A stretch of 62,990 bases of DNA, counting the filler, from Hausera hauseri (Eukaryota): NCBI GenBank assembly GCA_046269625.1. It is 12 parts of 12 records of this genome, joined end to end, with 100 filler letters (N's around TTAATTAATTAA, not from the genome) between each part and the next. Parts side by side here need not be neighbours in the genome. Positions count along the whole stretch, not along the records: positions 49,303 to 53,354 come from JBJURY010792757.1; 11 more parts are not named here. One strand, 5' to 3'. Numbering within the stretch: the first letter of the stretch is position 1; each line of letters opens with the position of its first letter. A program made the translations under genes and the position numbers. Below, piece by piece: positions 5,185 to 62,195 of the stretch. Below the pieces are notes generated by a model. That model made no database searches. It saw nothing but the letters and a program-made list of their open reading frames with translations, and was not told where the DNA came from.

Positions 5185-5340
5185 GATTTCCCAGAATGTA
5201 TGGAATTCCGAGTAATACTCTGTGTAGTGTATCGACTTACACCCTGCCTACACATGCTATGTCTATACTGTATAGATCGAGTCCGATCCCAAGCAAATCA
5301 AATGCCATATTGCCCAATTTGTAAATATGAAATTAAATAT
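5185..5340 (+). pseudogene. RING-HC finger 1
   Basis: DFPECMEF...PCLHMLCLYCIDR...CPICK. C3HC4 spacing, with the first Cys replaced by Phe (TTC for TGC). Confidence 0.8.
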
Positions 5341-6260: not shown

Positions 6261-6421
6261 ATCAGTTTATTACCACTTCTCATACACCTACAACAATCAT
6301 GTCCAACGATTATTCCATTGGATCAATCCTGTAAACGATGCGACATTAATAATCAGACCCAGAAACCTCAGCTTTATTGACGTCAGTACCCAGAGTGATC
6401 CGGAGGACCGAATCCTTTTTC

Positions 6422-18745: not shown

Positions 18746-19426
18746 TGTGGAGATTAAGGATGTCGTATGAACAACTTGGACCACTTGAGTGTCCAGTACG
18801 GACAACATTTTATTAGGTGGTGGAACGACGCCTTGTTGCACGAAATATGCAACTTGATTGGGTGTTGCACTAACTTTAAAATTTGAAATAACCCAAGAAA
18901 CTTCCTTTTGGGTTTGGAAGTCACCTTTATCCTGATGCTAATGTATGAGTAATGTGAGCTGACAGTCAATGACATTTTTGGTTTGTTCTTGATTTCCGGG
19001 AGTAATGTTTGACAAAACCCAAACAGCTTCCTTGTTGATTTCTTTTTTTTGAATGTTGCAGCAATTGTGAGAAATGAGATAATGCGTTGTAATTTAATTT
19101 GTATTGCGTTTGTTCGTCAGTTCTCGTTGCACTATTACCGACTGCCCGAAATGCAGCCGTTTGCACTTTTACGTCATTATGTGACAACAGTGGTACTAAA
19201 ATCCGAACGATATCAGCATCGATAACCATTTGTATTTGGTGATTTCCTCCGTCAGTTAAATAAGATAATTTCGAAACAATATCGACCAAAATATTAGAAT
19301 CTGGACTGTGTATAAGATACCACAATACGAGTAGCAATTCGCCGACAGTTAACATGCTAGGAGATTGGTCTTTGTTACGGCGGAGACTGACGGTAACGCA
19401 CGTAACGTCTCGTAAAAACGTTATTG
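18746..19426 (-). pseudogene. KPNA3: Importin-alpha (alpha-3/KPNA3-4 type) intronless frameshifted fragment
   Basis: [73 protein letters not shown] across frameshifts (ARM repeats). Confidence 0.9.
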
Positions 19427-19904
19427 NNNNNNNNNNNNNNNNNNNNNNNNNNNNNNNNNNNNNNNNNNNNTTAATTAATTAANNNNNNNNNNNNNNNNNN
19501 NNNNNNNNNNNNNNNNNNNNNNNNNNATAGTAAACTATACCGGACTCCAAGGCGACATACTGTCCGAAAAAGAAAGATTAATATATAATATAGCACGGAC
19601 CATGAAAACTTCGAGATTTAAATTATCTAAAAGCACCCTCCCGGACAAAACAGTGATTGACAGAATTATGGCAGATAATACAACGGAAGAATTAAGGAAA
19701 GTTTTGATATATTTGGCGGTAAGAACCAACCCCCACCGAGAAAACGAATTTGAAAAGACAATTGGATTGGCTAGAAAAGCTGCGAGAAGAATAACTAAAG
19801 AAGTAAAGTGGACTAAATTTTTTGAAAAAGAGGAAAATGTAAAAGGGACTAATAAGTTAGAAGATATGATACGAAATATCTCTTTAAATAGAGGCAATGA
19901 ATCC

Positions 19905-22024: not shown

Positions 22025-22029
22025 ATGTT

Positions 22030-24758
22030 ATGTACCAAGGACCAACAGAAAACGACCACGGAATATTGTACTCAAAAAGGATACCGCGCCACATAGAATC
22101 GGAATCAACAATCTGGGGGAACCCGAAACTGTGTTCGATCTCAAGTTCACTACCCCAGGAGCCGCTCATTGACAGTCGCGTTATTGAAATAATAAATAAC
22201 AATTTGTATCCGAATGGAGAATTAAGACAATTAAGGCAAGATATCATTTTATCGCCAGAAATAAAGATAAACGGACACAGAGTCTCTACTATAAAACGGT
22301 CCAAGATAGTGTCAAATTGCTACGGAACAGTAGCAGAAGGGAGACCTTTCGCTAACATACACATCGAAGATAGGGAAGTGTATGCGTTAATCGACACAGG
22401 ATCAGAAAAATCATTTATAAAATATGAATCGATACCAACCACATTTGGGCAAGTATCGAAGCCGAAATTTAAATGGACTCGTACCGTTTATCTAATGGGC
22501 CGAGCACTTCAACGTGAATTCGAGGTAATGGACCAGTTGTCAGACAATGTAGTACTAGGTTGTGATATATCAAAACAGATACCAGGTATGGCAATCGATG
22601 TCCATAACGGAAAATTAATTGAGCTGGAACCAATTAATAGGACAAAAATAATAAAGGAAAGGAAATCGGGCGAAGTATGGATTCCAGTAGATGAGGACAT
22701 CCCTCCCAGAACTGAAATGATAATTTTTGCGCAGATTCTTTAGGACGAAGATCTACCAGTACATTTTGAACCTCAAGAGAATATCGATCCAAATCTCATG
22801 ATTAGCAATATTCTATGTAGAATAGTGATGGGACAAATGCCTATCAGATTAGTGAACAATGCACCAACTACCGTACGATTGCATGCTAACACTACTCTAG
22901 GTCACACTTGTAGAGTATGGGCAATAACAATAGAAGAAAAACCATACAAATGCACAGAATTTCCACCTCACGTCGAAACCAAATTCTCTCCGGAAGAGTA
23001 TTGCAAGTTCTACGAATTATTATGTAAATACAGTTCGATAATCGCACAAAATGAAGAAGATATAGGTAGAGCAAAATCTTTAAGGTTAACAATTCCATTA
23101 AGGAAGAAACCCGGCTCAAATGACAAGATTGATCTAGAAGAACAGAAAATGCCCAAGTGGTACCAGCCTCCTCATTCATTGAGACCGGAGATAACTAAGG
23201 AAGTAGAGCGGATGTTGAAGGCCGATATAATTTGACCAATCTACCGATCGTGATACTCTTCTATACTTATGGTTAAAAAGAAAGAAACTAAAAAACATAG
23301 GTTTTGTATAGATTATCGGGCATTAAACACGTTGATGAAGAAAGACTCCTTTCCCCTACCGTCAGTAAAGGAAGCTTTAGACAGACTATAAGGAGCAAAA
23401 TGGTTTACCACTCTCGATTTACAATTGGGATACTGGCAGGTGGAAATCGAAGAAAAAGATCGATATAAGGCAGCGTTCAAAACACACGATGGCGTATACG
23501 AATTTAATGTTATGCCTTTCGTCATCACCACAGGACTAGCTATTTTTACTAGAATGATGAATAAGATGCTCATGGGACTTGATCATTCTTTTGCGTACTT
23601 AGACGACGTGATGATAGCATCAAATACGGAGGAGGAACACTTAAAGGATATTGAAGATACCCTCATGCGACTAGAACAAGCGAGTTTGAAACTAAATCCA
23701 AAGAAATGTAAATGGGCACAAAATGCAGTATCGTATCTCGGACACATAGTTGGAGAAGGAGAATCAAAACCGGACAAATCTCTACTAAATAAGATATCCG
23801 ATTACATGGAGCCGCAGAATCAAAAGAAATTAAGACATTGGTTAGGCCTATGTGGATATTATGCCACTTACGTACCAAACAATTCAAAAATTAACGCGTC
23901 ACTATATTGCCTACTCAAAAAAGGAATTAAGTGGAGATGGACGGAAGTGGAGCAAATAGTCTTCGATGAAATGAAGAAAGTTTTGACAAGTGAACCAGTT
24001 TTAAGATACCTGGATTTTAACCTGCCATTCATGATTAAAACAGATGCAAGTAAAGAAGGCATAAGATACGAATTAGCTCAAAAACGAGAAGGCGAAGAAC
24101 TGAAACATCCAATAGCTTATGGTGGACGCTCGTTAAAGAAAGCAGAAAAGAATTATTTAGTTACCGAATTAGAAACGCTAGCCGTTAAGGAAGCACTACG
24201 ACACTTTAACGTCTATGTCTACAGACAAAAGATCATAATACTAACCGACCACAAAGCTGTTACGACATTAAAAGGACGAGCTAATAACCCAACATGTAGA
24301 TTAAACAGTTAGATCGAGGAAATCTCACGATATAACATTGAATTTCAATACAAACCGCGGTAATAAACACGTCGACACCGACGCACTGTCAAGGTTAAAG
24401 ACAAAAACGAGTGCAATAACCACACTAAAGAAACCATAACTCGAACAGCTGATCGAACGACAAAGAACTCTGATATCGGATAAGACAATTAGAATTACAG
24501 CAGAGAAAGCTAAAGACACAGTTATTCAGCAAATTATCGAGTTCGTCAAAACAACAAAACGCCAAAAGGACGGCAACTGAAAAGCATCTACAGAAACACG
24601 GACATAAATATCGCGCATCAAACCAAGATAACACCCTGTATTACGAATGGAAAGGAAAAAGATTAATAGCCATTCCAAAATATTACGCACCGAAGTACTC
24701 ATGGCTGAACATGACTTGTATTTAGCTGGACACATGTCTTGGAAGAAGACATTGGAAA
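22030..24758 (+). pseudogene. pol: Pol: aspartic protease, RT, RNase H, integrase N-terminus
   Basis: ALIDTGS at 22393; [19 protein letters not shown] at 23596; IKTDAS, ELETLA, TDH, DALSR; EHDLYLAGHMSWKKT. Mostly one frame with stops. Confidence 0.95.
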
Positions 24759-30095: not shown

Positions 30096-30373
30096 NNNNN
30101 NNNNNNNNNNNNNNNNNNNNNNNNNNNNNNNNNNNNNNNTTAATTAATTAANNNNNNNNNNNNNNNNNNNNNNNNNNNNNNNNNNNNNNNNNNNNTCTAC
30201 AAATTTTATTTATTTCTTTCATATTATTTTTTCATTTCCAACATATGGTTTTATTTCTAAATCAATATATTTTTATGCAGCAACTGTGAAAACACTAATA
30301 AAAAAATAATTTTGCAACCACCAATGTCTAATATTAACAGAATATATTTATAATTGAAAGATTTATGCAACTT

Positions 30374-30433
30374 AGGTGCTATTTACAAACCACTATAGCG
30401 CTATTTACAAACCACTATAGTGCTATTTACAAC
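30374..30433. repeat. 22-bp tandem repeat, ~2.6 copies
   Basis: gctatttacaaaccactatag(c/t) repeated. Confidence 0.8.
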
Positions 30434-30499
30434 AGTTAAAACGAAAATTAAATGGGGTATATAAGGCTATTGAACGGGGATAAGTAACGCAACCTTTAA

Positions 30500-31770
30500 T
30501 CCAGAACAAGCATTGATAAGTCAAAAGCAAACCGTGTATTAAATGATAATTCACCTATACGTGAGACACGTCGAAACATATCTAGAGATATACAAAAAGT
30601 AGATAAACGTTCAAATTCAGAGAATAGAACCAAATTTGACGTTACCGAGCAGAATAAGCAATTTAAAATTCCACTTGAGAAGCATAGAATAACGAAACCA
30701 AATTTAGAGATAAATAACGTAAATAATTTGGCAGCAGATGACCCACCAGTAGCGCAGAAAATGGACATCTTTACCTTTGACTCTCTGAACTTGCCGGCAT
30801 ACGATGGCGACCCGGACGGGCTTAACGAATTCTTGAGAACTTATAAATTGCACACAGAAGTGCTAGTCTCACTCCTGAGGTAATGATTAAACGCTTGTCA
30901 TTATATTTGAAAAATGTAGCCGCTGACGCTTATAGTGAGCTCACAAATGATGAGAAAAAATCCTGGTCCTCCTTGGTAGGAGCATTAAACAGTAAATTAT
31001 TACCGACCGTAACTCCGCAGCAGAAGCTTATGGCGTTTCAGAATAGAGTACAACGAAAGGGTGAATCAGTAACCCAATTCGCATTTGCGTTGAAGAAGCT
31101 TGTAATAGTTATATAAACACACTACGTATAGCCAACGTAGCTAGAGCCAAAACGGATGCGGAACGCGAGGCCGCAGAAAAGGCAACACCACCAGATCTAG
31201 ATGTCATGATGACGACTCAATTAATCTATGATATTTGGTCACGAGATTTGGTTAAACAATTAATTTTGGCTAGACCTGAAAACTTTGAAGGAACTCTACA
31301 GTTAGCTCAAGATTTAGAAATGGCACTCGACAGATATGCCAGACACAACGATAGAAACAACAGAAATAATTATCGAAGTGATCGTAACGACAGAAATCGG
31401 AATGATAATCGTGGAAGAGAAGATAGACGATTTACGGGTATTAAAAATTATGGGAATCGAAATAATCATAGCAGTTACAGAAATGGCGGAGGTAATAATT
31501 ATACTAATACGAAGAGATCATATTTTAACTGGAATAGGACTAGAGGAAATTATAAAGGCTCAAACTACTCGAATCAAAACGGCGATAACCAAAATAATGA
31601 TAATCGACAAAATGCAGGTAACGCGCAAAGTTTGTCAAATCAGTATAATAAAAGTATGAACAGATCTAAGTCACCTGTGAACGAAGATGGTCGACAAAGA
31701 GTCAACAGAAATGGGAATTTAGTTTGTTTTACTTGCGGAAAAGGACACATTTCAAGATCATGTCCAAACC
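30500..31770 (+). pseudogene. gag: Ty3/gypsy Gag (capsid, Asn/Arg-rich linker, CCHC-type knuckle)
   Basis: LPAYDGDPDGLNEFL, RLSLYLKNVAADAY, RVQRKGESVTQFAFAL, CFTCGKGHISRSC at 31725-31763. Confidence 0.88.
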
Positions 31771-34708
31771 CACGTAGCGTTTCATTTACTAAGCCGAACA
31801 AGACTAGTATGATCAGAACTAACGAAAATTTAGAAGCAAAGTATGGGGTTCGCGGTGATACAGGCACTATCATTGACATACAAGATTTACGGTGGTTTCT
31901 AGACGCTCAGCCTAAATCCAATAACCCACAAATTTTGATGGCTAGAAAAGAATACAGAGATAAGCTGAGACTACTAGAGGTATATCATGGTATAGTAGAA
32001 CCAGAAACTGACTATGAGCATGCGATTTCCCCTAAGCGAATTTATATGACACGGAAAAAGAGTGTTCCGACAAGTAATAAACCATCTGATAAGCCAGGCA
32101 CATCGACAGAAGTCGACTTAGATGCAGAGCCTGAGCTCACAGTTGAAAAGATAGAGAAGCCCACGAATGACGATGCAGCAGAAAAAGAATGTATGCAACC
32201 ATTAATACTTAAAATTACCAAAAATAGAGGCCGTAGCCCTTCATTAAAAACAAAACGTAGAAGCCGTTCACGTTCAGAAGTAACTAGAGCGAAAATAGCA
32301 GAAATGAAGGATACGAGCATCTCGGTAGGAAGCGACGTAGCACAAAACTTAGAAACACCAGAAGTCGGCCCATTTACACCTATCGAAGTGAGAGAACCTA
32401 AAGAGTTAGTCAATGAAATTAACGAGATTTGTCCACTTCCCATTAGTGAGGAAGAAACGGTAAATACCGACTATTCTGATCCAAAGAAGTGGAAAGTCCT
32501 ACGCTCATGGAAAAATGCCGATGAGCTAAAGGAAATGAGAGTTAGATGTCACGATCCAGAAATACTACAGCAAAATTTGGAAAGACTTAGACAGATTAGC
32601 CAGCAAGTAGATATATCTGGAAAAGAACAGCAGTATGCTGAGAGACTATATAAAAGTTTGAAATTATATAGTGAAGGGAAACTTACAGAAGCAATCGACT
32701 TAGGACAATCGGAAGATGTATCACCTCAAACATTGTCAAAATGGGAGCATGAGTTAGAATCATGGATTAAAAGAGGAGTAGAATTTTCGGAAGGATGGAG
32801 CCAAATAGAAGATAGTGTCGACGCAAAAGTCACTAAAGCTCAGACGCTATTGTCAACCTTAGAAGCAAACCCAAAATTAAAGAGTGTGGTCCGAAATTTA
32901 GAACGTATGATGGATGAAATTCGTCACGCAATAATTAATCGGCTTAGGGAAAAACCGGTTAACCATCGAAGTAATATCAATTTAGAAATATTGGGCATAG
33001 ACCCTATATATATTCCCCCTTTGACGGCGATGATAAAAATCACCTTTGGTGTACCCAAACAATATACAAACCTAGAAAATTGAATTAAGATAGAAAGTGA
33101 AAGGCGAGCGCAGATTTATAGTTTGAGAAACCGGATTATGTTTCCAAACAACGAAGAAAACAAAGTACGTAGTAAAAGCTTGTATCATAGAATTTGATGA
33201 ACATAAGGACGAGTTTAGCTATGTCGGCTGGATTATGGATTTCCTAAGAGGGCCGGACGATGAGTTGAAAGATGCATGTAAGATGCTAGATAAGACTATA
33301 ATGACAAAGCCAATAATCTCAAATCAGTTGTCGGAATGGTTTGAATTAGTAATATGGTTAAGCAATTTAGTGGGAAGTCGTAAGAAAGAATTCCAAGAGA
33401 GCGAGCTTTCTGTAAAGAAATAGTTAGAAGAAAGCGCGCGCAATTTAGACACAGTACTAACATAAATCGACATCGAACGCGATTTGAAGCATTACGACGA
33501 CTCAATTTTATGAAAAAGAAACAAGAAGCGACGATTCTGGAAGAGATATGTAAAATGGTCGAAGAGACGAATTTTACAGAAAAGCTGAATATGACTTGCA
33601 ATTTTTATCCAAGATTGAGAAATGTCCGATTAGAAGGAGTTCAACATTTAACAGAGAAACCTATTGACGAGATCTCTGTCCAAGACATCGAAACCTTAGA
33701 CATTTGTCCGGAACACCGAGCCACTTTGACGTACACGATAAAATTTTAGCACAAGCCACAAGAATAGATGGCCGGATCAGATCAGAATTTCCATACCGAG
33801 TTGATAAAGATAAGAAACGATCAACATCTTAGTGTTCAATAATCTAAGTTCGTAAAGAAATTGCTGGATGCAATAGATCCAGACTCAAAAGCCTACTTAT
33901 TGGTATCAATGGCAGAAATTAATGACGAAAGGATGAGACAACTGATGCAAAAATTACAGCAAGTCGAAGAGACGTACATCAGAACAAAACAAAGAGCATC
34001 TAGGCTAGATGAACTGGCAAAAGAATTCGAAATTTACCGAAACAAATATGCGTTATCGAATCAGAGATTAAAAATAAACGAGAATTCGTATAAAGATGGC
34101 AAAAGATGTAATTATTTAATTAACATATTATCACCAAAAAGGACTCATCGAGTCTAACAAATTCGGCGAATTACTGAAAATGATTCGATGTGACTGTGGA
34201 AACGGAATAGGGTTCCGAATTGCACAGATGAAGGAAATACAATCAAGACTAAAAAAAATTACGGAAAACGTGAAACGAACAAATACAGCCTTGGTAGACT
34301 ATGGACTTCCAGACGACGGAAACGAACCCGAATGGGATGCATACTTTGTCGCGATACTTGCCGAAAAGCTTATGACTCCAGTACAACTAAATGAGATAGA
34401 AATATGTCTGCAGAACAGGAGATTCAATGTGGTGATACTTCTGGATTCGGCGCTAGCTGAAAAGAGTTAATCGAATTAATTAACGTAAACATTACTGGAA
34501 GTAAGTTAAGACAACTTATTCCAACATTAACTAAATTATCCAGTAAGAATAGGATTTATAGCACGGTGCCGAAACTTTTGATTAGGAAATACGCTAAATT
34601 CTTAAGGGCTAAACCAGAAGTAGCGATAAAAATATTGGTAACATCCGAATGGATGGAGGAAAAAGAATGTGAGCTAACTACATATTTCTACGGAAAAGAT
34701 GTAAGAGA
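31771..34708 (+). pseudogene. Gag-fused ~1000-aa unknown region X (copy 1), ending in the N-half of a ubiquitin-like domain
   Basis: In frame with the knuckle in ORF 31206-33083. Collinear with 49479-52217 (RSWKNADELK.MR.RCHDPE, GPDDELKDA, QDIETLDI, LVDYGLPD.GNEPEWDAY, SEWM.EKECELTTY). Confidence 0.85.
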
Positions 34709-34929
34709 NNNNNNNNNNNNNNNNNNNNNNNNNNNNNNNNNNNNNNNNNNNNTTAATTAATTAANNNNNNNNNNNNNNNNNNNNNNNNNNNNNNNNNNNN
34801 NNNNNNNNTAAGAAATTGGACTGCAACCAAATTTAACCCTTTAAATAGAAAATCTTTCAATTGTTTGGTATAGAAAGTGGTTTCCCTCTATGCTCTACTC
34901 CTCAGCTTTATTCTTCTGATTACGATACC

Positions 34930-35934: not shown

Positions 35935-36760
35935 TAGATTAACCCATTTTGTCGAACTGATGGCATTAGTGGACCAAAAAGCGTAGACTGGCAGAAGCCG
36001 TAGTAAGGAAAATCATCTGCAGATACGAACCTCCTGAACAAATTCTGACAGATCGAGGAAGGAACTTTACGAGTGAATTATTCGAAGGGATTACCAAAAT
36101 ATTTGAGATTGAACGATTAACCGCAACTGCTTACCACCTGCAATGTAACGGAATGGTCGAACGGATGAACGCAACCGTTATACGAATCTTATCAATAGTA
36201 GTTGCGAAAGACCAGAAGGATTGGGATGAATTCTTAGAGGGTACACAGTTTGACATAAACACTACATCACATCCCTCAACAGGATTTACTCCATTTTTAT
36301 GATGTATGGTAGAGACGCTGTACTACCCACGGACTTATGAATAATACCATATACAGTAAAAACGGATAATCTAATACTAAACTTTGTTAAATTGTTGCAG
36401 ACGGGATTACGCAAACGATGGGATATAGCCAAAGAATTGTCCAAAAAATATCAAGAGCAATTTAAAAGGCAATATGATAATAACGCTATACCATATGATT
36501 TGGAGAAAGGAAACTGGGTTTATGTGCATTATCTGGTTGCGAAGAAAGACAAATCTTTAAAACTAACCCGAACTGGCAGAGGACCTTATAAAATTATTAG
36601 AACCACACCAACTAAAGTCTATATTAATAAAAATGGCAAAGAGGTCGTATCCATACAAAGAGTGGTCAAAACGGAAATAAGGCCAAATAAACGATATAAT
36701 CTGCGTTCGACTGAGAAAAATCCAAGTCAAACCAAGAAAGAAAAGAAAACGTCATCGATA
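35935..36760 (+). pseudogene. pol: Ty3/gypsy integrase core and GPY/F C-terminus
   Basis: PEQILTDRGRNFTSELF, TAYHLQCNGMVERMN, QKDWD, STGFTPF..YGRD, RGPYKII, RYNLRS. Confidence 0.93.
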
Positions 36761-37910
36761 GTAACTAGACCGATATCATGTGCACAAATAATTCTTGAAC
36801 TATCGCTAATCGCTTCATATATACCAAGTGAAAAAACACAATGAATACTGTGTTTAGTAGAATATAACCACGGAGTTATGCCATATTTCGCAACTGAAAA
36901 AGAACAACATGCAGGAAGACGGCAAGACATACAGAATTTACAGTTGCTCAGAGTCTACGATATGAATTCAATAAAACACTGCGCCTGGTTTAAGACAAGC
37001 GAATCTGTTAAGAACAATGTAAAATTTCAGATTATATTTGTGGATCAAACAAGTTCTAGGATGAAGACATGTGATTTTCCATATGGACCCTATCAGAAAT
37101 GTTGCGATTTAGATTTCGGACGAACATATTAATATAAATTTTAGACGTTCTATTATAATCTGCCTGGAGCCCAAGCCTATATAACTACCGAATTGGAAAT
37201 ACAAATGCCTCAAGGTAACGACACAAGTTAAGCCAAGACAGATGATATAGTCCGAAATACCGATCCATTTAAGAGACTCTTAGATTATAGCATTATTGTG
37301 AACTCCAAAGACTTTGAAAACCAATGTATTCGAATTAAGAACAAAATAGAGTTGCATGGAGATAGACGAATTTCCATCCGATTCACAACGACACATAAAT
37401 CAACCCCTCCTGTGAAATATTGTTATATTGCGCGAGAACAACAAAATCCGGGCTGCAGGATATCTTTGGATTATGAATACCAAATGCAATTTGATTTGTA
37501 CAATACATACCCGAACGAACCGAGTACTTATTTAATAGTATATCGTCCAAAAGTCGGAATATGGAAGATTTCCTTCCCAACAACTACAAGAAAACCGTCT
37601 ACCATTCCAAGTACGACTCGCACCACTAATATTAATACTTCGAGTAAAATGACCGATAGAGAATTGGAAAACATACATGTTAAAATTTTGGCGCGACATA
37701 ATAGAATTGTATTTTATGTTGAAAAAACAGTGGATTATGAAATTAAAATCGAATGTCGTAACTTACATACCAACAAAATTGTAATCTTAAGGAAGAATAG
37801 TCAGAAAATCGAACGTAAATCTCTACGATGACAAAATGAGCATATAATTCAAATGACCGCAATGGTAAGAGACATAAAACTCTTACAGTACAAAGTCTTA
37901 ACAACGAAGT
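36761..37910 (+). pseudogene. In-frame post-integrase extension: signal-like segment, beta-rich Cys-containing (FN3-like) domains, Thr/Pro linker
   Basis: ORFs at 36392, 36878 and 37298 share one frame. AQIILELSLIASYIPS; KTCDFPYGPYQKCCDLDFGRTY; PTTTRKPSTIPSTTRTT. Confidence 0.6.
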
Positions 37911-38229
37911 TAACTTAATTCCATATGTTGGCTGCGTGCACATCCACGCCGTCCACATCGTCGCCCAACTTGGGGACAAATGGAAAATCTCCGACCCTGG
38001 TATGTCCGCAGAAGCAGAATTGGATCGTTTGTAGTTAATCATTGAAAAGTTAACATCAATTGTTGAAAATTTTACTATCATCCAAATACTTATTTGGAAA
38101 CAAATTTTCCCAAATTTTCCCAAATTCTAAATTTAAATTATACTTTTAATGTTACACTTTTAAATTAAATTTTTTTTATAATTTAAATGTTTCTAATTTA
38201 AATTTAGAATTTCCGTTCTCGATTATATC

Positions 38230-41911: not shown

Positions 41912-42541
41912 GCTTACAGCATTCACACTAATTAAACAGAAACCAGAAAATATTTATTACAGAACCAAAAAAGCACCAGGAGAGTGAAACTTTGGGTTTT
42001 ACAACGAGCCCTCCAGCATCTACCCTACACAATGGAAAACCATCAATTGACATCATGGAAAAAAATAGACGTCCATCATAGTGTGATGAAGCTACAAACA
42101 GGAGGGTTATAAAGGAGAAATCTAACACTAACATTAATTAAGAAAACAAAACACTCAAGTCTTCTGTTCAAACTTGGTCTCATTTTCTCCCATCTGTAAA
42201 ATGTTTATAGTAACAATCATACAACACAAGACCATTCATCTTTTATTAAAGTGTTGATTACAGAGAATTAGTTTAAACTGAATTCTAGGTCAACTGTAAA
42301 ATGTTCCAGCGCTGGTAAACATTCATCACCATGGTAACGAACGGCTATGTCATCATACATGTATCACAGTCAGCCAGAACAAATACTATGACATCACTCA
42401 TTACACAGCAGTTTTCAAAGGGATTTAACATTAAGTCATATTGCTCTCAACTCAGTTCCGAGGTGCACATTTCACTGAAGGTATTTAGTAGTTATTCTTC
42501 AAGAAGCAGATTACTGTTGGAAGCAATTTGTTCCAAGTACA

Positions 42542-44410
42542 ATGATGAATAGTTCCACACAACAACCGACCGAGGACAGGTCGGACCAAATAAATGACAA
42601 TGATGACCGATTCAATAAGGACAAGTCGGACCAAATAAATGACAATGATGACCGATTCAATAAGGACAGGTCGGACCAAATAAATGACAATGATGACCGA
42701 TTCAATAAGAAAGACAGCAAAAGAGAAAGTCTTTTGTCCAATGTTGAAGACAGGAGTCAGCGTAAAGAAATGGATGTTCAGAAACTAATTAAAAAGCTGG
42801 AGGTAAAATGCTTCAAGTTATCTAGCAAGAATAAAGAAGTTACGGCCAAACTTGAACAAAGTAAGGCAAAAGTTGAGCATCTGGAAGGTCAGTTGCGAAA
42901 CACCGAACAAACTCTTGCAGAAAAATCAAAGACTCTGATGCTTGAAACTGCGCAGAGACGGGACCTGGCTGACAACGTGGCAGCACTGAAGGTGTTCCGA
43001 GAACGAGCGCTGGACGCAGAGAAACAGGTCAAAGAGCTTATGGACGAGAACCAAAGACTCAAAGTGCAAGCAGACTTATCGCAGCAAAAAGCAAGATCAT
43101 CTAAAAATGAAATGGAGGCTCAGAAAGTTGAGCATAAAAAAATGACGGATCTCTTGAGAATTAAAGACAACTTGAACGACAATCTTAATGTTGCATTGGA
43201 AGCAAAAGAAAAGGAAGTGGATGCTAAGACAGAGGAGCTTCAGAAGCAACACAGAATTATGGAAGAGGCTGACCGTGAAGCAAAAAGACGTCGCCAAAAT
43301 GAGGCAATGATTTTACAAAGAATAAAACGCAAAGATGACGAAAATTTAAGTCTACGAAATGAAGTGAGATTACTGAAAACGGCTTTGCTTGACGTCGAGA
43401 AGAGCTTGAGAAAGAGAGATTTGAGGCATCAAAAACTCCAGGAGAAATTTGAAAATGTCCAGTCAGAGAAAGCACAATTTGAAGAAGAAAACAACACCCT
43501 GATAGATGCCAAAGAGAAACTTGAAAGAAAGGTTCTGGACAAACAAGCACATCTGCAGAAGTCCCACAAAAAGATTACGTCTTTAAAGAATAAAGTGGAG
43601 CAAGTCAAGATGAAACTGGCTGAAGCGATTAATATCAGCAAAGAAAACCAGATCAATTTTGAAAAGGAAATCCTGGGCGCAAAAGAAGATTGCAAAAAAG
43701 TAGAACTACAGAGAGAAGAAGCTCTGACTAAAAACAGAAGGGCCACAGAAACTCTTCACTCATATGAGAGGAAAATTGGCCAACAGTTTTATAAAATTCG
43801 CCAACAGGAATCTCAGATTACAGAGCTCTCTAAGGAGGTTCTGAAACTCCGTACGGAAGAGGAGAAAATTAAGAAGATAGAAGATGCTTCTTGTAAGCCG
43901 GAGATATTATTTATAGTGGAAGAGAACGGAGAGGTCGTATTTATCTCAGAGGACACTCGCAAGGAGCAAGTTGGAACGCTTCGTGCATGTAAGCTCAAAT
44001 TATCCACCAAACTAAAAGAGATGGGGAACGAAAATATGGCGCTCAAGCATGAGGTGGAGAAGCTGCAGCAAGTGGTGAAGGACCTCGAGTGCAAGGTAAG
44101 CCGACAGCCGGAAGACAAAGGCCCAAGACTGAAAGAAAGTCAGACCCAGGTTAGAGCTCTGAAGGAGCAGGTACAAATCCAAGAGGCAGAAATCAGCTCC
44201 TATGTGGCAAAAGTAAAACTGCAAGAAGAGAACATTTATAAGCTGAGAAATGACTTGGGAAGAGCCACATTTAATGTGAAAAAGAAGCTTCCACAAATTA
44301 CTCCTCAGTCAAAACACGACAAAGTAAATACTGAGGATACCATAAAAAAATCCAGGAACATCGTTTATCTGCCGCCCATCCAGAACAACTCATTTGGAAA
44401 GGGCAAATAA
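42542..44410 (+). CDS. Intact intronless 622-aa coiled-coil protein, teleost-like context
   Basis: Uninterrupted ORF rich in K/E/Q/L heptads; no catalytic motif. Confidence 0.75.
   Translation: MMNSSTQQPTEDRSDQINDNDDRFNKDKSDQINDNDDRFNKDRSDQINDNDDRFNKKDSKRESLLSNVEDRSQRKEMDVQKLIKKLEVKCFKLSSKNKEVTAKLEQSKAKVEHLEGQLRNTEQTLAEKSKTLMLETAQRRDLADNVAALKVFRERALDAEKQVKELMDENQRLKVQADLSQQKARSSKNEMEAQKVEHKKMTDLLRIKDNLNDNLNVALEAKEKEVDAKTEELQKQHRIMEEADREAKRRRQNEAMILQRIKRKDDENLSLRNEVRLLKTALLDVEKSLRKRDLRHQKLQEKFENVQSEKAQFEEENNTLIDAKEKLERKVLDKQAHLQKSHKKITSLKNKVEQVKMKLAEAINISKENQINFEKEILGAKEDCKKVELQREEALTKNRRATETLHSYERKIGQQFYKIRQQESQITELSKEVLKLRTEEEKIKKIEDASCKPEILFIVEENGEVVFISEDTRKEQVGTLRACKLKLSTKLKEMGNENMALKHEVEKLQQVVKDLECKVSRQPEDKGPRLKESQTQVRALKEQVQIQEAEISSYVAKVKLQEENIYKLRNDLGRATFNVKKKLPQITPQSKHDKVNTEDTIKKSRNIVYLPPIQNNSFGKGK
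42572..42708 (+). repeat. 45-bp coding tandem repeat x3
   Basis: D(R/K)SDQINDNDDRFNK repeated three times, nearly identical at DNA level. Confidence 0.95.
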
Positions 44411-49302: not shown

Positions 49303-49478
49303 GCAATCGGTTGGGGAAAAGTGCAAAAGTGCCCTTAGCAACGGTGCCCTTAGGCACCGTTGCTAGGCACTCTATGGATCGGTAGTGCACAGTGTTCACT
49401 ATCGATCGGCACGTGCAAAATCGATTTATCGATTACCCCCTCCCCGGGGTGGGACCGAACCGCCATTTTTACACTACT
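49303..49478 (-). mobile_element. Polinton/Maverick-like terminus abutting region X
   Basis: Minus strand starts AGTAGT-GTAAAAATGG. Internal hairpin TAGCAACGGTGCC..GGCACCGTTGCTA. Homologous to 61292 onward. Confidence 0.45.
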
Positions 49479-52400
49479 GAAGAGAAATTACAATTAATGG
49501 AAGTTTTTCACGGGCCAGAAACCGAGAATGAATATGCACTGGCACCAAACAATACTAATATGGGGCGGAAAAAGCCTATTCCGCAAGGAATAGCCCAGTT
49601 AGAGAAACAAATGACACCTCAGAATATAGATTTAGACGCCGAAATAGAATCCGGAATGAATAACCCAGATGAAACGACAGATGAAGTCGAAAGTGAATTT
49701 ACTGGGCTCTTAGTTCTCAAAATAACAGAACAAGAGCAGAAGCCCAACGCCTAAGAGGGGGTCCAAGACTCGCTCTCGGTCTTCCGTTCAAAGGGACTCG
49801 GAAGAGAAGATTTCTATACTGTTACCTTAGGTGATGATTTGCTCTCAAACACTCCTATTATGCCTAAAAAACCTTCAGAAACGTTAGAAACACCAGATGT
49901 AATAAATATTAATGACGAAATTAACGAGATTTTTTCGCCTCCCACTACTGAGGAAGAAACAGAAAATAGTAATGATTTTGACCAGAGGAAATGGAAATTT
50001 CCACGCTCATGGAAGAATGCCGATGAATTAAAGAAAATGAGAATTAGATGTCACGATCCGGAGGTAATCTAAAACAATTTAGAAAGACTTAAACAGATTA
50101 GCAGACAAGTAGATATATCTGGTAAAGAAGAACAATTTGCGAAGTTATAAAAGTTTAAAATTATGTAGCAAGGGGAAGCTCGATGAAGCAATCGAATTAA
50201 GACAATCCGAAGAGGTATCACAGGATACGTTGAGCAAATGGAACCAGGAATTAGAGTCATGGATTAAAAGTGGAGTCGAATTCTCAAATGGATCTAGTAA
50301 AAACCAAGACTGGATGTAAAAGTTGCTAAAGCACAAACGTTACTATCAACCTTAGAAGTTAATCCCAAGTTGACAAGAGTAATCCGTGATTTAGAACGCA
50401 AGATGGATGAAATCCGTTATGCAATGATCAACCGGCTTATAGAAAAAAAGTCAGCAATCGAAAAGATATCGATTTAGAAATATTTGGTATAGACCCAGTA
50501 GATATTCCTCCCTTGATGGAAATGATAAAAATTACCTTTGCCTTACCCAGACGATGTAAGAATTTAGAGAATCGTATTAAAATGGAGAACGAAGAGATCA
50601 CAGATCAGTAGTTTGAGAAATCGAATTATGTTAATGAATAACGAAGAAACCAAATACATAATAAAGGCTTGTATCATAAAATTCGATGAACATAAGGATG
50701 AGTTTAACTACGTTATCCAAATTATGAATTTCATAAAAGGTCCAGACGACGAATTAAAAGATGCATATAAGATGCTAGACAAGGCTATATTGGCAAAACC
50801 AGTAATCGCCAACCAGTTGTCAGAATGGTCCGAGTTAATAACGAGATTAAGCAAATTAGTAGAAGACCGTAAGAAAGAATTCCCAGAAAGCGAACCATCT
50901 GTAAAAATGCAATTAGAAGAAAGTGTACGTAACCTAGATACCATACAAGCAGAAATAGACATCCGAACACAGTTCGAAGTATTACGACGTTTAAATTTTA
51001 TGAAGAAGGAGCAAGAAACGATGATATTGGTAGAGATTTATAAAATGATCGAAGAAACAAACTTTACAGAAAAACGAAATGGCTTGCAATTTTTATCCGA
51101 AATTAGCAAACATCCAGTTATAAGGAGTCCAATACTTGACGGCTAAATCCATCGACAAAATTTTAATACAAGATATCGAAACTTTAGATATTTATACAAA
51201 ACATAGAGTGGCCATGGAAGAAGCGATGAGGTTCATATGTAACCCACACGAATGTATGCCTGGAACAGATCAAAACTGTCATACCGAGTTAACCAAAATA
51301 AGAAACGAGCAACATTTCAGTTTCGAAGAAGCTAAATTTGTAAAGAAATTGCTCGACGCAATGGATCCCGATTCAAAAATCATAAATGAGATGTGAGTTA
51401 ATCTACTTATTAGTAGAAATGGCAGAGATTAACGATTAGATGAGACAACTGATGTCCCAATTACGACAAGTTGAGGAAACATGCATCAGAACTAAACAAA
51501 GAGCAACAAGGTTAGACTAATTAGTAAAAGAACTTGAAGTCTATCGAAACAAACATGCTTTCACCAAGTCAGAAATCGTAAACAAATGAGAATTTGTGCA
51601 AAGATGGCAGAGATGTAATTATTGAATTGACTGATTATCACCAGAAGGGATTCATCAATTGTAATGAATTAGACGAATTGCTGAAAACGATTCAGTATGC
51701 CTGTGGGAACGAAATATGTTTCCGGACTATGCAGATGAAGGAAATACAACCAAGATTGGAAGAAATTCGGGAAAATGTGCAAAGAACGAATACGGCCTTA
51801 GTAGACTATGGACTTCCAGATGTTGGGAATGAACCGGAATGGGATGCGTATTTAGAGGCGATAACGGCCGAAAATCCTATAACTCCAGTACCCCTAAATA
51901 AAATAGAAGCATATCCGCAGAACAAGAAGTTCAATGTGGAGATGCTCCTGGATTTAGCACCAACCGCAAAAGATATAATCGAGCTAATTAACGTAAACAT
52001 TACTGAAAATAAGTTAAGACAACTTATTCCGACCTTAACTAAATTATCTAGTGAGAACACAATTTACAATACGACGCCGAAACTTTTGATAAAGATGTAT
52101 GCCAAAATCTTCAGGGCTAAACCTGAAGCAACAATGAAAATAAAAATATCGTCCGAGTGGATGGACGAAAAAGAATGCGAGTTGACCACTTATTCCTTCG
52201 TAAAGGACGTAAGAGTGGTTAAGGAATAACGGTGGAACGAACGAGTCAAATTATAGATTTTATTTCAGAGGTAGAATACTAGACGATTTAGAACAGTTAA
52301 TAGACGTCGGAATTATACCCGACGAAACAAACAGAATAGTGGTAACAATAACCAACGAACAGACTAAAGAAGCCACACGTAAAGCAAAGACAGAACAATG

Positions 52401-53064
52401 TGTAGGACAAATCATGGGAGTTCAAGACGCCGCAATTTATTTCGATTATTTTCAAACAGACGAAGACAAGGAACAATATGACAAGAATTTAGTACCATTA
52501 AGCATAACATTGCCAGCTGCCCCGAAACAGACGGCCAGTAGGTAAGCCTAGGAAAATTCGAGAAGACGTCGATCACAACTGAGAGCTAATTAGAGAATTG
52601 AGACAGATGTCAATTCCCACTTTCAGTACGGATAATGAAGAATTAATTGAATTAATGAGGAATCTAATGCGAATCGTGAATTATTCGAGCCTTCGAGGAG
52701 ACGCATTAGATGACAAAGAGAAAGTGATATTTAATGCAGCTAGGAGAATGAGGAGCTCGCATTTTAAGTTATCAAAGAGTAACCTAACTGACGATGTAGT
52801 AGTTGAGAAAATTATGGTGGAGAACACGACAGAAGAGCTAAGGAAAGTATTCTTGTACTTAGCAATCATGACAAATCCTAATGGAGAAAATGAATTTCAT
52901 CGAGCTACAAGCTTGGCGCGACAGGCGGCTAGGAAGCTTCCTTGCAAAGTAAGTTGGCCAAAATTATTTGATAAAGAAGACAAAAGGATCAGTAGTAACA
53001 ATAGAATTGAAGACATCTTACGGAACTTGACGACAACGGATAATAACAACCAGAAGAATGAATC
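49479..53064 (+). pseudogene. Region X (copy 2) including ubiquitin-like domain and pre-env segment
   Basis: Collinear with 31970-34708. IVNYSSLRGD...ENTTEELRKVFLYLA..TNP..ENEF is collinear with 19527-19904. Confidence 0.88.
52134..52350 (+). pseudogene. Ubiquitin-like domain (one frameshift near 52215)
   Basis: MKIKISSEWMDEKECELTTYSFVKDVR/(E)WLRNNGGTNESNYRFYFRGRILDDLEQLIDVGIIPDETNRIVV aligns without gaps to ubiquitin 1-71. Confidence 0.75.
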
Positions 53065-53354
53065 TAACTGGTTGATCAGCTTACTCACTATAATGATGCT
53101 AATAAAACAGATAGGTGCTGTCACTCTATGATTGCGATAGATTTAAGCTCGGACAAAAATATTCACTAATGGACTTAGAGGCGTGTGAAAAACGCCAGAC
53201 CACACAAATTGGAAACGAAGGAGAAGAGTTATTTCCTATACCAATAACAAGAATTGATATCTTTGGACGGCATAGAGTGTATGCTGAGACGATCTCGTAG
53301 CATTTTCCACTGTGGACTAATGCACGGACATTCCTCGATAATCAAACCAACAAC
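53065..53354 (+). pseudogene. env: Signal peptide and N-terminus of chuvirus/gB-type glycoprotein (copy 2)
   Basis: NWLISLLTIMMLIKQIGAVT-LYDCDRFKLGQKYSLMDLEACE...CMLRRSRSIFHCGLMHGHSSIIKP. Confidence 0.9.
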
Positions 53355-53454
53355 NNNNNNNNNNNNNNNNNNNNNNNNNNNNNNNNNNNNNNNNNNNNTT
53401 AATTAATTAANNNNNNNNNNNNNNNNNNNNNNNNNNNNNNNNNNNNNNNNNNNN

Positions 53455-56400
53455 CAGGTTCAAACAGCACCATTTCCCTGCCTATATGATTATAAAAAAC
53501 TTTTGAAAATATCCACTCAAGAGATTTCAGATGAGATAATTTCCTCACGTATATGATTACAACAAACTTTTGAAAAAATCCCCTGAACCAGTTCCATACC
53601 ACACTGTTTCACCAACTATATGAATATAGCAAACATTTGAAAAAATTCAATCAACCAATTTCAGAAAATACCATTTCCCCACCTATCTGACTATAACAAA
53701 AATTTGCAAAAATGATTGGTACAACACAATTTCCCCGCCCGTTTGACTATAACACAGATTTGTAAAAATCCCTTCACCTAGTTTCAAACAAAACAATTTC
53801 CCCACATAACTTATTAGAACAAACTTCTGAAAATGTCCCCTGAACCACTTTCTATGAACATCAATTCCCCACTTATATAAGTATAACCAACTTTTGAAAA
53901 AATCCCCTCAACCAGTTTCAGACGACAACATTTCACCAACTATCTGAATATAACAAATATTTAAAAAAATCCCTTGACCCAGTTTAAGACAACACCATTA
54001 TCCCACCACTCCGACTATAAAAAACAAGTGAAAAAAATCTCCTCATCCAGCTTCAGACAACATCATTTCACCGCCTATCTGATTAAAGTAAATATTTGAA
54101 AAAAATCCATTGAACCAATTTCAGAAAACACCATTTCCCCACCTATCTGACTATAAAACAAATTTGCAAAAAATGCCCTCAACCAGTTTCAGACAACACA
54201 ATTTCCCTGCCTATCTGATTATAAAAACTTTTGAAAAAATCCACTCAAGAGATTTCAGACGACACAATTTCCTCACGTATCTGACTATAACAAAGTTTTG
54301 AAGATATCCCCTCAACCAGTTACATACCACACCGTTTCACCAACTATCTGATTAGAGCAAACATTTAAAAAAATCCAATCAACCAATTTCAGAGAACACA
54401 ATTTCCCCATATATCCGTCTATAAGAAAAATTTACAAAAAAATCCCCTCAATCGGTTTCAAACAACAGAATTTCCCCACATATCTCAGTATAACAAACAC
54501 TTGAAAAATTCGCCTGACTCAGATTTGTACAATACCATTTCCACACCTGCCTGACTACAACACATATTTGTAAAAATCCCTTCATCCAGTTTCAGAAAAC
54601 ATGAATTCCCCACTTATCTGATTATAACAAACTATAAAAAAGTGCCCTGACCAAGTTTCGGACAACGCAATTATCCCACCACTCTGACTATAAAAAACGT
54701 GAAAAAAATCTCCTCATATAGCTCCAGACAACACCATTTCACCGCCTATCTGATCAGAGCAAATATTTGAAAATTCCACTCGACCAATTTCAAAAAGCAC
54801 CATGTCGCACCTATCTGACTGTAACCCAAATTTAAAAAAATGCCCTCAATTAGTTTCAGACAACAAAAATTTCCCGCCTATTTGAGTATAACAATTCGCC
54901 TGATCTACATTTGACTAACACCATTTCCCCACCTATCTGACCACAACACAGAATCGAAAAAAGTCCACTCAACTAATTTCAGAAAACACCATTTCCCCAC
55001 ATATCTATCTATGACAAAACCTTGAAAAAATACCCTCAACCAGTTTCAGACAAAACAAATTCCCCACATATCTGAGCATTACAACCGTTTGAAAAATTTG
55101 CCTGACTCAGATTGGTACAACAACATTTCCCCGCCTGCATGATTATAAAACAATACAATTTCCACACCTGCCTGACTATAACACACATTTGTAAAAGTCC
55201 CTTTATCCAGTTTCAGAAAACGTGATTTTCCCACTTATCTGATTATAACAAACTATGAAAAAATACCCTGACCCAGTTTCAGAAAACACCATTATCCCAC
55301 GACTCTGTCTATAAAAAACATGTGAAAAAATTTAATCATCCAGCTTCAGACAACACAATTTCACCGCCTATCTGATTAGAGCAAACATGTGAAAAAAGTC
55401 GACTGAACCAATTTCAGAAAACAACATTTCCCACCTATTTGACTATAACAAAAATTTGCAAAAATGCCCTCAACCACTTTCAGACAACACAAATTCCCCA
55501 ACTATATAAGTATAACAAACATGTAAAAAATTGTCCTGACGCAGATTTGTACAACACGATTTCCCCACCTCTCTGATAATAACAAAAATTTTCAAAAATG
55601 CACTCAACCAGTTTCGGACAACATCATTTCCGTACCCATCTGAGGATAACAAAAGTTTGTAAAAATCCCCTCTACCGATTTCAGACAACAGAATTTCCCC
55701 ACCTATCTGAGTATAACAAACATTTGAAAAATTTGCCTGACTCAGACTTGTACAATATCATTCCCACACCTCCCTGATTATAACACACATTTGGAAAAAT
55801 CCCTTTATCCAGTTTTATATAACATGATTTCCCCACATTTCAGATTATAACAAACTATGAAAAAATACCCTGACCCAGTTTCAGACAACACCATTATGCA
55901 ACCACTATGACTATAAAAAATATGTAAAAAAAATCTCCTCATGCAGCTTCAGACAACACCATTTCACCGCCTATCTGATTATAGCAAACATTTGAAAAAA
56001 GTCCACTGAACCAATTTCAGAAAATAGCATTTCCCACCTATCTGACTATAACAGAAATTTGCAAAAGTGACCTCAACCAATTTCAGACAACACAAATTCC
56101 CCAACTATATGAGTATAACAAACATGTAAAAAATTGTCCTGACGCAGATTTGTACAACACAATTTCCCTTCCTGTCTGGCAATAACACAGATTTGTAAAA
56201 ATCCCATCATACAGTTTCAGACAACACGATTTCCGCACTTATCTGATTATAACAAACTATGAAAAGATGCCCTGACCCAGTTTCAGCAATACCATTATCC
56301 CACCACTCTGACTATAAAAACGTTTAAAAAATCTCCTCCTATAGCTTCACACGACACCATTACACCGCCTATTAGACTGCAAAAATATCTGCAAAAATGC

Positions 56401-57530
56401 CCTCAACCAGTTTCAGACAACATAAATTCCCCAGCTATCTGAGTATAACAAATATTTGAGAAATTCGCCTGACCCAGATTTGTACAATACCATTTCCCCA
56501 CCTGTCTGACTATAACATACATTTGTAAAAATACCTTCATCCATTTACAGACGACACAATTTCACCACCTATCTGACTATAACAAACATTTGAAAAGATC
56601 CCTTGACCCAGTTTCAGACAACATCATTTCCCTTTCTATCTGGTTATAAAAACTTTTGAAAAAATCCACTCAAGAGATTTCAAACGACACAATTCCCTCA
56701 CGTATCTGACTGTAACAGACTTTTGAAAAAATCAGCTCAAGCAGTTCCAGGGCACACCGTTTCACCACTTATCTGATTATAGCAAAGATTTGAAAAAAAT
56801 CCAATCAACCAATTTCAGAAAACTGTATTTCACCTCATATCTGACTATAAGAAAAATTTGTAAAAATCCTCTCAACGGGTTTCAGGTAACAGAATTTCCC
56901 ACCTATCTGACTGTAACAAAAATTTGCAAAAATACCATGACCCAGTTTCAGACAACACCATTATGCCACCACTCTGACTATAAAAAATATGTAAAAAAAT
57001 CTCATGCAGCTTCAGACAACACCATTTCACCGCCTATCTGATTAGAGCAAACATTTGAAAAAAGTCCACTGAACCAATTTCAGAAAATAACATTTCTCAC
57101 CTATCTGATTGTAACAAAAATTTGCAAAAATGTCCTCAACCAGTTTCAGATAACACAAATTTCCCACGTATCTGAGTATTACAAACATTTGAAAAATTCT
57201 CCTGACCCAGATTTGTACAACACCATTTCCCCGCCTGTCTGACTATAACACATATTTGTAAAAATCCCTTCATTTAGTTTCAGAAAACATGATTTACCCT
57301 CTTATCTGATTATAAAAAACTTTTGAAAAATTCCCCTCAACCAGTTTCGGGCAACTCCGTTTCACCAACTATCTGATTATAGCAAACATTTAAAAATTCC
57401 TCTCAACCAATTTCAATAAACACCATTTCCCCACCTATTTCAGTATAACAAACATGTGAAAAATTCCACTCAACCAGTTGCAGACAACATCATTTCACCA
57501 CCTATCTGATTATAGCAAAAATTTAAAAAA
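53455..57530. repeat. Satellite array, ~67-68-bp monomer, ~60 diverged copies
   Basis: Consensus approx. tcagacaacaccatttccccacctatctgactataacaaacatttgaaaaaatcccctcaaccagtt. Confidence 0.95.
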
Positions 57531-58989
57531 TCGGCCAGAACAGATCTGCAGAAACTGCGTCACCTTCCACCATTAAGATACCAACCCACATCTTTAACTA
57601 ACCGGCAAAATTAAGAAAACTTAATAAGGAATTGTCAATGTGTCCACTATATAGATCTGAATTTGCACTACCAGGTAACAATTTATTCCTATCTATGCAG
57701 AACAGCTTGAATGCACGCGAGTTTCAAAAGAGATCTGTAAATGTTACTAATCACAGTTTTCTTGTTCAGAAACAACGTTGTCAGAAAATTGCCACTATTT
57801 TGACTGTAAAAAGCTCAATACTCTTGATTATCCACTATATTGCTATTCATAATTCGTATGAAATTATAAAGTGCAAAAACGATAGACTGGGTTTAAATCA
57901 ATAAAACAATCCAGATCTATATTCGTCCATGAAATATGTCCAACATGTCATTTACCTGTACTGTGGGAGATCATCAATCAATTTTGCTAATTCTTTTGTG
58001 CTCTCTGAATTACTTGGTGAATAACAAACAATGCGTCCCATAAAGCTGTTGGTAAATTTTCGGCGAACATTCAACTGTTTAATACCATACTGAACACGAT
58101 CGATTGCAGACTGAGACCATTTAAGAATTCGTTTCTGTTTGAACTTTGTGCTGAAACGTCCATGAACACTTCATTTTCATTCCGTGTGGAACGTTACTGC
58201 TTTCCAAAAATGTCATTATGTCCGCAGTATTGTAGGGCTGATCGGTCAGCTGTATCGAACGGAATTGAGGTTCACCATTTCTTCAATTCGATCAGAAGTT
58301 GTTTCAATGTTCCGCCGAAGTCGAATATTTTTTTGAGCCTTCTTATGGTTCGCTAACGTTTGTGCCACTTATGTGGCCAGTGCTTTACACGCATGAGGCT
58401 TTTTAACGGTAGACACCGATGAAACCACCGATTGTGGAAAAATAATAGATCAACGCAAATAACCTTCTGAACTTAGGGAAAGAAACTTTCTGTCCAGAAT
58501 AGGAATTTTTGGAAATTTCAATTACGGGTAACTAACATCCGAACAACGCCCCCCCCCCCCCCGGATTCAAAATCACCGACTAGTAAAGATTGTGTCCGTT
58601 GAAAGTTTTTATGATTGATATTTCCAAATTTATTCACGTAGAAAATTCGAATGACGATGATTCCAATCATTTCGTGTAATTGTTAGACTTCTGCAAAAAC
58701 TTAATTGTGGTNNNNNNNNNNNNNNNNNNNNNNNNNNNNNNNNNNNNNNNNNNNNTTAATTAATTAANNNNNNNNNNNNNNNNNNNNNNNNNNNNNNNNN
58801 NNNNNNNNNNNAGTAATCAATCTTTTATTATTAATTTAAAATTTAATTTATTACATCCATTTGTTTATAAATTTAAAACAATTTTATTAAAAGTTTTTGT
58901 GTACCTTTCTGTTCATTACAGATACCAGCCGGTACAATATCATCAGCTACATCTAGTCAGGTTCGGAAGTTTATGAAAAAACTCGAGTG

Positions 58990-61291: not shown

Positions 61292-62195
61292 AATAGTAGG
61301 GAAAAATGGGAAGTCTGCCTCACCCCCTCCGGGGGTGTGCGAATCGATCAATCAGTTTACACATATGCCAATCGATAGTTCACACGGAATACTAACGATC
61401 GATAGTGTGCTAGGCGACTGTGCCGCTATGCGCCGTTGCTATGCACATTTTTCCACATTTCACAAATCGATCGCTGCACAGTGTAGTATTGATCGAATCG
61501 ATCGGGACAAAGTGCTAAACGATAGTGCACATCAGTTCACATCGATTAGTGCACAGTGCATGTGTGCAAACCATGTGCAAGTGTGCAAAATTCAATAATA
61601 TCGGATTTCCGATAATCCCAATGTTGATGATTGGGGCACGCCACCGGGTGAAATGGAAAGCATACATGATGCACTGTGCCAATGTGCAGTTAGAATTTAA
61701 ATATATTGATTGGTTTTTGAATAATTGCCAACTGAGGCAGACTTCCCATAGGCCTTTCCGCTATAAATTGAAAATTAATAATATCAATATAGCACATATA
61801 CTGGCGAGTGCAGTACTTGATGTACTATCGTTCAGTGAAATACTCGAATTAGGTGTGCTCTTAAATACAGTTGCCAAGGCACTTTTTACTTTTTACATAT
61901 TTGTCACTGCAGCGTAGGATTGATGAAATCGATTGGGGTCAAGTGCAGTTAGATACAGCACATCGAGATTCACCTTGATATATACTGTGCAGTGCAAAAA
62001 CACATGTGCAAGTGTGAAAAAATCAATAATATCGGTTTTCCAATATTTCCAATATTGATTATTAAGACATGAGACCGCGTGCATTGAAACAAACACATGG
62101 TGCGGTATATGAATGTGCAGTTAGAATTTATATTTATCGATTAGATTTTGAATAATATCGATCAAAAATGAAACTGAGACAGACTTCCCATAGGT
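61292..62195 (+). mobile_element. Polinton-like terminal region with internal ~180-bp direct repeat
   Basis: Starts (a)TAGTAGGGAAAAATGG and is rich in ATCGAT/GTGCAC palindromes. 61573-61753 is repeated at 62003-62194. Confidence 0.45.

Follow-up and report, generated by a model that had tools for sequence, protein, structure and literature searches.

The locus analysed here raises the question of whether a decayed retroelement of Hausera hauseri (Eukaryota) encodes a ubiquitin-like domain split by a frameshift and, if so, what purpose such a domain would serve in a retrotransposon polyprotein. The entire DNA stretch, referred to below as the window, originates from assembly GCA_046269625.1 and measures 62,990 nt. 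It is composed of 12 unrelated contigs, mostly of 4-5 kb, joined by 11 artificial spacers of 100 N (34709-34808 and 53355-53454, for example), and adjacency across these spacers is therefore without meaning. The split domain is carried by contig 49303-53354 (JBJURY010792757.1), which holds a decayed element displaying many stops and shifts and truncated at both ends by the 4-5 kb contig limits. This element, hereafter the window copy, is dead. A repeat of very high depth, which includes a short inverted repeat, is located at the start of the contig (49303-49450) and recurs at about 61320-61475; it is likely another small element inserted into the dead copy. Copy A (contig 30196-34708) is 75% identical to contig 49303-53354 over 2.3 kb and additionally displays a Gag remnant and a zinc knuckle, and contig 19527-24758, which belongs to a sister family, is 69% identical to the last 640 bases of contig 49303-53354. 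In the single public run found to contain this DNA, 13,811 contig pieces matched the 4-kb copy at a likeness of at least 80%, and the element family is therefore very abundant in its host. No RNA data set was listed for this DNA, a result without bearing on its expression. The coordinates of the relevant features are collected in Table 1.

Table 1. Features of the element family in the window, in coordinates of the whole stretch.
Feature	Position	Strand	Remarks
Sister-family contig	19527-24309	+	pre-Env, Monjiviricetes-type Env (PF24664, E 1.8e-26), protease, RT, RNase H
PTAP motif	21893-21904	+	Env tail of the sister-family contig
Gag remnant, copy A	30895-31766	+	Retrotrans_gag E 0.002, sub-threshold; CCHC zinc knuckle at 31725
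Helical domain and ubiquitin-like N-half, copy A	34461-34708	+	runs into the contig end ahead of the break
Possible decayed first ubiquitin-like domain	50519-50771; copy A 33024-33285	+	profile E 0.003; weak, chosen post hoc
Helical domain, ~55 residues	51963-52121	+	precedes each ubiquitin-like domain in the window copy, copy A, P0019 and P0020
Ubiquitin-like domain, N-half	52134-52217	+	predicted strands 1-2 and helix start; frame of ORF 51582-52229
Frameshift	52210-52229	+	decayed copy; most bridging sibling copies stay in one frame
Ubiquitin-like domain, C-half	52222-52350	+	frame of ORF 52213-52545; I44 position is Tyr, no di-Gly
Helical pre-Env domain	52583-53128	+	position of Burro's BCL2-like domain; ends in hydrophobic segment 53072-53128
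gB/chuvirus-like Env start	53129-53354	+	broken, truncated by the contig end; 69% nucleotide match to contig 19527-24758

The two halves of the domain are in different frames, as had been described in the first-pass annotation: the N-half lies at the end of the ORF terminating at 52229 and the C-half in the +1 frame. All 15 identities to ubiquitin listed at that stage were recovered when the sequence given in the PDB search alignments was taken as the reference, with 4 in the N-half (M1, I3, E16 and V26) and 11 in the C-half (G35, R42, F45, G47, L50, D52, L56, D58, I61, T66 and V70). The absence of a C-terminal di-Gly, from which an integral ubiquitin-like domain had been proposed, also holds, as positions 75-76 are NE in the window copy. 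For the purpose of database searches, the peptide was read through with an X at the break. The best of 24,736 Pfam models for this read-through was PF00240 (ubiquitin), with an E value of 0.036 and 14.3 bits for a cut-off of 25.4. The Pfam search of the repaired peptide thus returned the anticipated family as its top model, but below threshold and with an alignment limited to the C-half. PDB matches of the window peptide alone are sums over polyubiquitin repeats, with per-domain E values of at least 600.

Relatives were searched for by comparing the RT of the sister contig to proteins of 1,926-5,000 residues, which yielded 55 matches. P0019 (4,057 aa) and P0020 (3,700 aa), which rank first and second among these long proteins in RT bit score (47% and 45%), are both intact. 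Each comprises Gag, Env and Pol in a single frame, and their Env is 31% and 27% identical, respectively, to that of the window. When the X read-through was compared to all 55, its best matches were located in the same two proteins, upstream of Env (E 0.005 and 0.059). Each of them contains two units made of a helical domain of ~55 residues followed by a ubiquitin-like domain. The two modules within one element are ~20% identical to each other, and the module is present in 2 of the 55 long RT proteins. Residues 771-835 of P0019 match Pfam ubiquitin (E 4.4e-5) and Rad60-SLD (E 0.0015), and the two domains of P0020 match seven ubiquitin-like Pfam families, all sub-threshold; no ubiquitin-like Pfam match in the window or the relatives reaches the gathering cut-off.

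An HMM built from the four modules of P0019 and P0020 alone, with the window excluded, scored the X read-through at 34.8 bits (E 9.4e-10), a value reached by none of 989 scored shuffles (maximum 11.2). Over 1,510 natural window segments, the three best hits of this HMM were the module's own pieces (E 1.7e-5, 0.0012 and 0.0031; next 0.42). The ubiquitin-only HMM of the relatives aligns just the C-half of the window domain. Comparison of the window module with the second module of the relatives using hhalign gave a probability of 92.8 (E 4e-7) over 129 columns spanning the break, and 1.0 with the first unit. Two family profiles, which contain P0019 and P0020 together with the window and thus partly measure the relatives, were compared to the PDB: ubiquitin-fold proteins accounted for 38 of the 41 matches of one profile (best, Dsk2 UBL, E 0.0016) and for 58 of the 60 top rows of the other (best single-domain E 0.015). 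The family profile aligns to ubiquitin 1-61 with one gap. An Atlas search with the P0020 module reached ubiquitin/Rad60-SLD clusters at only 0.80-0.81, which is a lead and not evidence. By way of the relatives and the family profiles, sequence-profile comparison supports homology of the region to ubiquitin-clan domains.

The C-half ORF (P0002) found no match among 1.84 billion representatives; the family is far from those in the protein libraries and the module has therefore been kept over a long distance. Relatives of P0001 were absent among proteins of 378-2,000 residues, as were those of the window Env among proteins of 864-2,465 residues. No relatives were found in viral contigs, in metagenome contigs searched with the window's own motifs or in the Atlas with the helical and N-half part. 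In an RT tree of 24 chosen rows, the window family, whose RT comes from a different contig, joins P0019/P0020 weakly (UFBoot 64); it is not joined to them in a FastTree of 55 rows (one short match omitted). The helical domain matched no named family in Pfam or PDB searches, and a by-eye likeness to the TFIIS N-terminal fold was rejected in the absence of Pfam or PDB support. A further helical domain considered near 32955-33100 was also discarded as 106 of 500 shuffles scored as well. The trace of a first unit, located ~1.5 kb upstream in both copies, was equalled by 0 of 1000 shuffles in copy A and by 46 of 1000 in the window copy, and displays no Pfam ubiquitin-clan match.

The history of the break was examined in sibling copies. 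In the same public run, 751 pieces covered 52120-52360; the depth collapses exactly at 52219-52227, and the sole insertion-deletion row of the interval sits at the break. Contigs with at least 31 letters on each side were considered as bridging, and five such contigs are present among the eight listed of about 750 pieces. In four of these five, the length difference with respect to the window restores a single frame for both halves, which bears out the frame repair expected earlier; in the fifth it does not. Variants were counted at 39 distinct places among 40 of the 64 variant rows, 8 places of the junction zone being excluded. Third codon positions in the half's own frame account for 7 of 9 listed places in the N-half (P 0.008) and for 18 of 22 in the C-half (P 4e-6), where the P values are a guide only as the copies are not independent. 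Purifying selection acted on both halves. Given this bias, both were coding during the spread of the family and the frameshift results from decay; it looks private to the decayed window copy. Copy A had been expected to suggest the bases lost at the frameshift. It does carry the N-half, but it stops at 34708, where the contig ends in an N spacer before the break is reached, and therefore says nothing on the lost bases.

Two further readings of the locus were weighed. One is that the likeness to ubiquitin is superficial or restricted to the C-half and that the region adopts another fold. The sub-threshold 14.3 bits of the window peptide alone, over its C-half, and its per-domain PDB E values point in this direction. 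AlphaFold models of the single peptide (pLDDT 52) and of a five-row input (pLDDT 44) display no beta-grasp, at a confidence too low to support or refute the fold, and Foldseek returned nothing at E <= 0.001 for these two models, whose quality makes the rows meaningless. Both halves are nevertheless homologous to modules matching the ubiquitin clan over their whole length, and the profile alignment to ubiquitin requires a single gap; another fold is quite improbable, and the region very probably has the ubiquitin (beta-grasp) fold. The other reading would explain the frameshift by programmed recoding, or as a signal for cleavage. Programmed frameshifts are used by retroelements, and pestivirus polyproteins carry ubiquitin inserts as cleavage signals. 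Both versions are extremely improbable here: most bridging contigs hold the domain in one frame, P0019 and P0020 are open across it, the window copy contains many further stops and shifts, and the di-Gly needed by a deubiquitinase is absent. The evidence supports the presence, between Gag and Env, of an integral ubiquitin-like domain that cannot be conjugated and that a frameshift interrupts in the window copy.

Taken together, copy A, the dead copy and the sister contig give the family order Gag - accessory region - Env - Pol. The gB/Monjiviricetes-type Env is found between Gag and Pol across two related window contigs and within the single frames of P0019 and P0020. The Pol order is PR-RT-RH on the sister contig, which is cut before the integrase, and the full PR-RT-RH-integrase is present in P0019 and P0020. 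A Bcl-2-like nature was considered for the pre-Env domain; no Bcl-2 match was obtained in Pfam or PDB for that of the window or of P0020, and the profile match of the window's domain to the relatives is not significant. P0003 and P0020 have a hydrophobic segment just ahead of Env, that of P0019 being below threshold, and segment 53072-53128 is likely an internal signal sequence of Env. Late-domain motifs are present in the Env tails of the relatives (PPVY and PPFY; P0019 1881, P0020 1871), and a PTAP is found in the sister contig. In three members of the group, motifs of this type are carried by the cytoplasmic Env tail instead of Gag.

Several other features were noted. A protease-like segment and ankyrin repeats are located between Env and the main protease of P0019 (~1950-2330), and P0020 has two protease-like stretches. 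Both proteins continue past the integrase with a signal-like segment, followed by a beta-rich region and then a membrane segment. In the window (35970-38031), an integrase has additional ORFs behind it, which begin with a hydrophobic stretch and include a Thr-rich one; in view of the shared extension, this region may be the 3' end of the same element group. At 4774-6570, where a long A-rich series of broken ORFs ends, decayed ORFs carry two RING fingers (PF13920 and PF24921); they may be ligase genes accessory to some other large element. An intron-less fragment on the minus strand (18539-19424), at the 5' end of a gypsy element, has no Pfam match and is presumably importin-alpha-like, as recognised by eye. 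The window also contains a 67-base satellite in ~60 copies (53455-57532) and a coiled-coil-like ORF of 643 residues (42479-44410), which includes a 45-base triple repeat and matches no Pfam family.

The domain is real and its architecture is already known. The initial statement that no standard LTR element carries a ubiquitin-like domain between Gag and Env is contradicted by the planarian gypsy-like elements Burro/GYPSM1, in which, according to the accessible text of PMC6431247, a Ubi2/SUMO-like domain (PF11976) is flanked by MATH and BCL-2 domains and precedes a mononegavirus-like Env, which is in frame between gag and pol. The same text calls for experiments and cites Grohme 2018 and Jurka 2007. 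As far as Burro is described there, the likeness covers Gag with CCHC knuckles, the Ubi2/SUMO-like domain, an in-frame Env, protease, RT, RNase H and integrase, as well as the thousands of copies, the decayed copies with frameshifts and the ankyrin repeats, also present in P0019. However, MATH, BIR, AIR1 and Smc are absent in the 51 of 74 window ORFs covered by the Pfam scan and among the matches listed for the relatives (25 of 28 and 19 of 19). The relatives are also shorter (3,700-4,057 residues versus 4,873-5,140 for Burro in that account), and neither the helical and ubiquitin-like unit nor its duplication appears in the accessible portion of PMC6431247. The element, set against Burro by description only, is Burro-like but is not assigned to Burro, because the cargo domains and the giant ORF1 size were not encountered.

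GAG-ENV-POL errantiviruses with an HSV/gB-type Env are described from Nematoda, Bryozoa and Platyhelminthes in the available text of PMC13524379. They share with the present family a Ty3/gypsy Pol, a gB-type Env before Pol and a multi-copy state, but the Gag-Env interval is left unannotated in that text, where 'ubiquitin' occurs 0 times; ubiquitin, SUMO, Ubl and Bcl likewise have 0 occurrences in 7 of its supplementary files. As the gene order of the present family is described from these three phyla, its host probably belongs to one of them (flatworm, nematode or bryozoan). For Drosophila Gag, a SUMO-interaction site is only mentioned in the accessible part of PMC3383448. Among the papers found, none examines the function of such a retrotransposon domain, and the sole mention is one sentence on Burro, without experiment, in the portion available; subscription papers, Repbase reports and Grohme 2018 may bear on both points. 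The integral type 2 ubiquitin-like domains (PF00240 ubiquitin, PF11976 Rad60-SLD, Dsk2, UHRF1) share with the present one a profile match that covers strands 1-4 and the helix, as well as the lack of di-Gly; the window domain differs by its ~20% identity, below the Pfam cut-off, and by the absence of the L8/I44 patch. This patch is carried by the ubiquitin-like domains of proteasome shuttles.

The surfaces of the domain bear on its role. Positions 75-76 are NE, DE and ND in the window and the relatives; in the absence of di-Gly, the domain is not conjugatable and offers no cleavage site to deubiquitinases. The L8-I44-V70 patch reads E-Y-V in the window, and H-T-T and K-T-T in the relatives. 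K48 and K63 are absent in the window, P0019 and P0020. R27, G47, D51, D52, D/E58 and P63 (ubiquitin numbering) are kept in all three, and the conserved acidic face rests on these three sequences. Our preferred reading, to which a rough probability of 0.55 is given, is that the ubiquitin-like domain and the small helical domain of this high-copy Gag-Env-Pol gypsy element form a cytoplasmic docking adaptor for the host ubiquitin/SUMO machinery. In the intact element, one long frame would be translated, the hydrophobic segment before Env would act as an internal signal and Env would enter the ER, the Gag, the helical and ubiquitin-like units and the pre-Env domain remaining cytoplasmic. The conserved acidic face would then bind a host conjugating enzyme, ligase or deubiquitinase, which is the least certain step, and such binding would damp the turnover of Gag products or cell-death signalling. 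Budding would be handled apart, by recruitment of ESCRT through the PPxY/PTAP late motifs of the Env tail. A role in damped turnover or cell death was proposed without test for Burro in the accessible text of PMC6431247.

Alternative roles have to be weighed against the docking adaptor. The first-pass annotation had suggested engagement of the proteasome or ESCRT. The domain could mimic Gag-attached ubiquitin in ESCRT budding, or deliver the polyprotein to the proteasome as do the ubiquitin-like domains of Rad23 and Dsk2. Ubiquitin without di-Gly, when fused to Gag, does promote ESCRT-dependent budding in the available text of PMC2958808, the best PDB profile match is the Dsk2 UBL and V70 is retained in the window copy. 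In the same available text, however, budding by Gag-fused ubiquitin needs L8 and I44 (PMC2958808), which are replaced by E/Y in the window and by H/T and K/T in the relatives, so that the patch required for this process is missing. V70 is also a Thr in both relatives, and separate late-domain motifs exist in the Env tail. Engagement in the manner of ubiquitin is not borne out by these replacements, and such mimicry is decidedly unlikely; E2/E3-type machinery could be engaged through a different surface. The helical and ubiquitin-like unit could also be a scaffold internal to the element, binding its own Gag/nucleocapsid or Env tail at assembly with no host ubiquitin enzyme involved, much as in coronavirus nsp3, where the nucleocapsid protein is bound by an integral ubiquitin-like domain. 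The duplication of the whole unit directly behind the zinc knuckles, the loss of all functional surfaces of ubiquitin and the divergence of the two modules of one element to ~20% identity are in keeping with this role, which is possible if tentative. Most Gag-Pol elements nevertheless assemble without the module, carried by just two of the 55 long RT proteins, and the Burro counterpart sits among ubiquitination- and cell-death-linked domains in the accessible part of PMC6431247.

Beyond the docking adaptor itself, the helical and ubiquitin-like pair could be an accessory unit, old and duplicated, of the enveloped retroelements of worms, which has shed every usual surface of ubiquitin and whose conserved acidic face hijacks a host SUMO/ubiquitin conjugating enzyme as a virus-style counter-defence against silencing or cell death, a more specific proposal that is doubtful at this stage. 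What is new here is the conserved unit, made of a helical and a ubiquitin-like domain, arranged in tandem and devoid of the L8/I44 patch, the absence of which narrows the range of possible binding partners. If docking on host ubiquitin/SUMO enzymes is true, it would show how giant enveloped retroelements steer host cells; the hijack of a conjugating enzyme, if true, would make the pair the first effector of this kind to be defined in the polyprotein of a retrotransposon.
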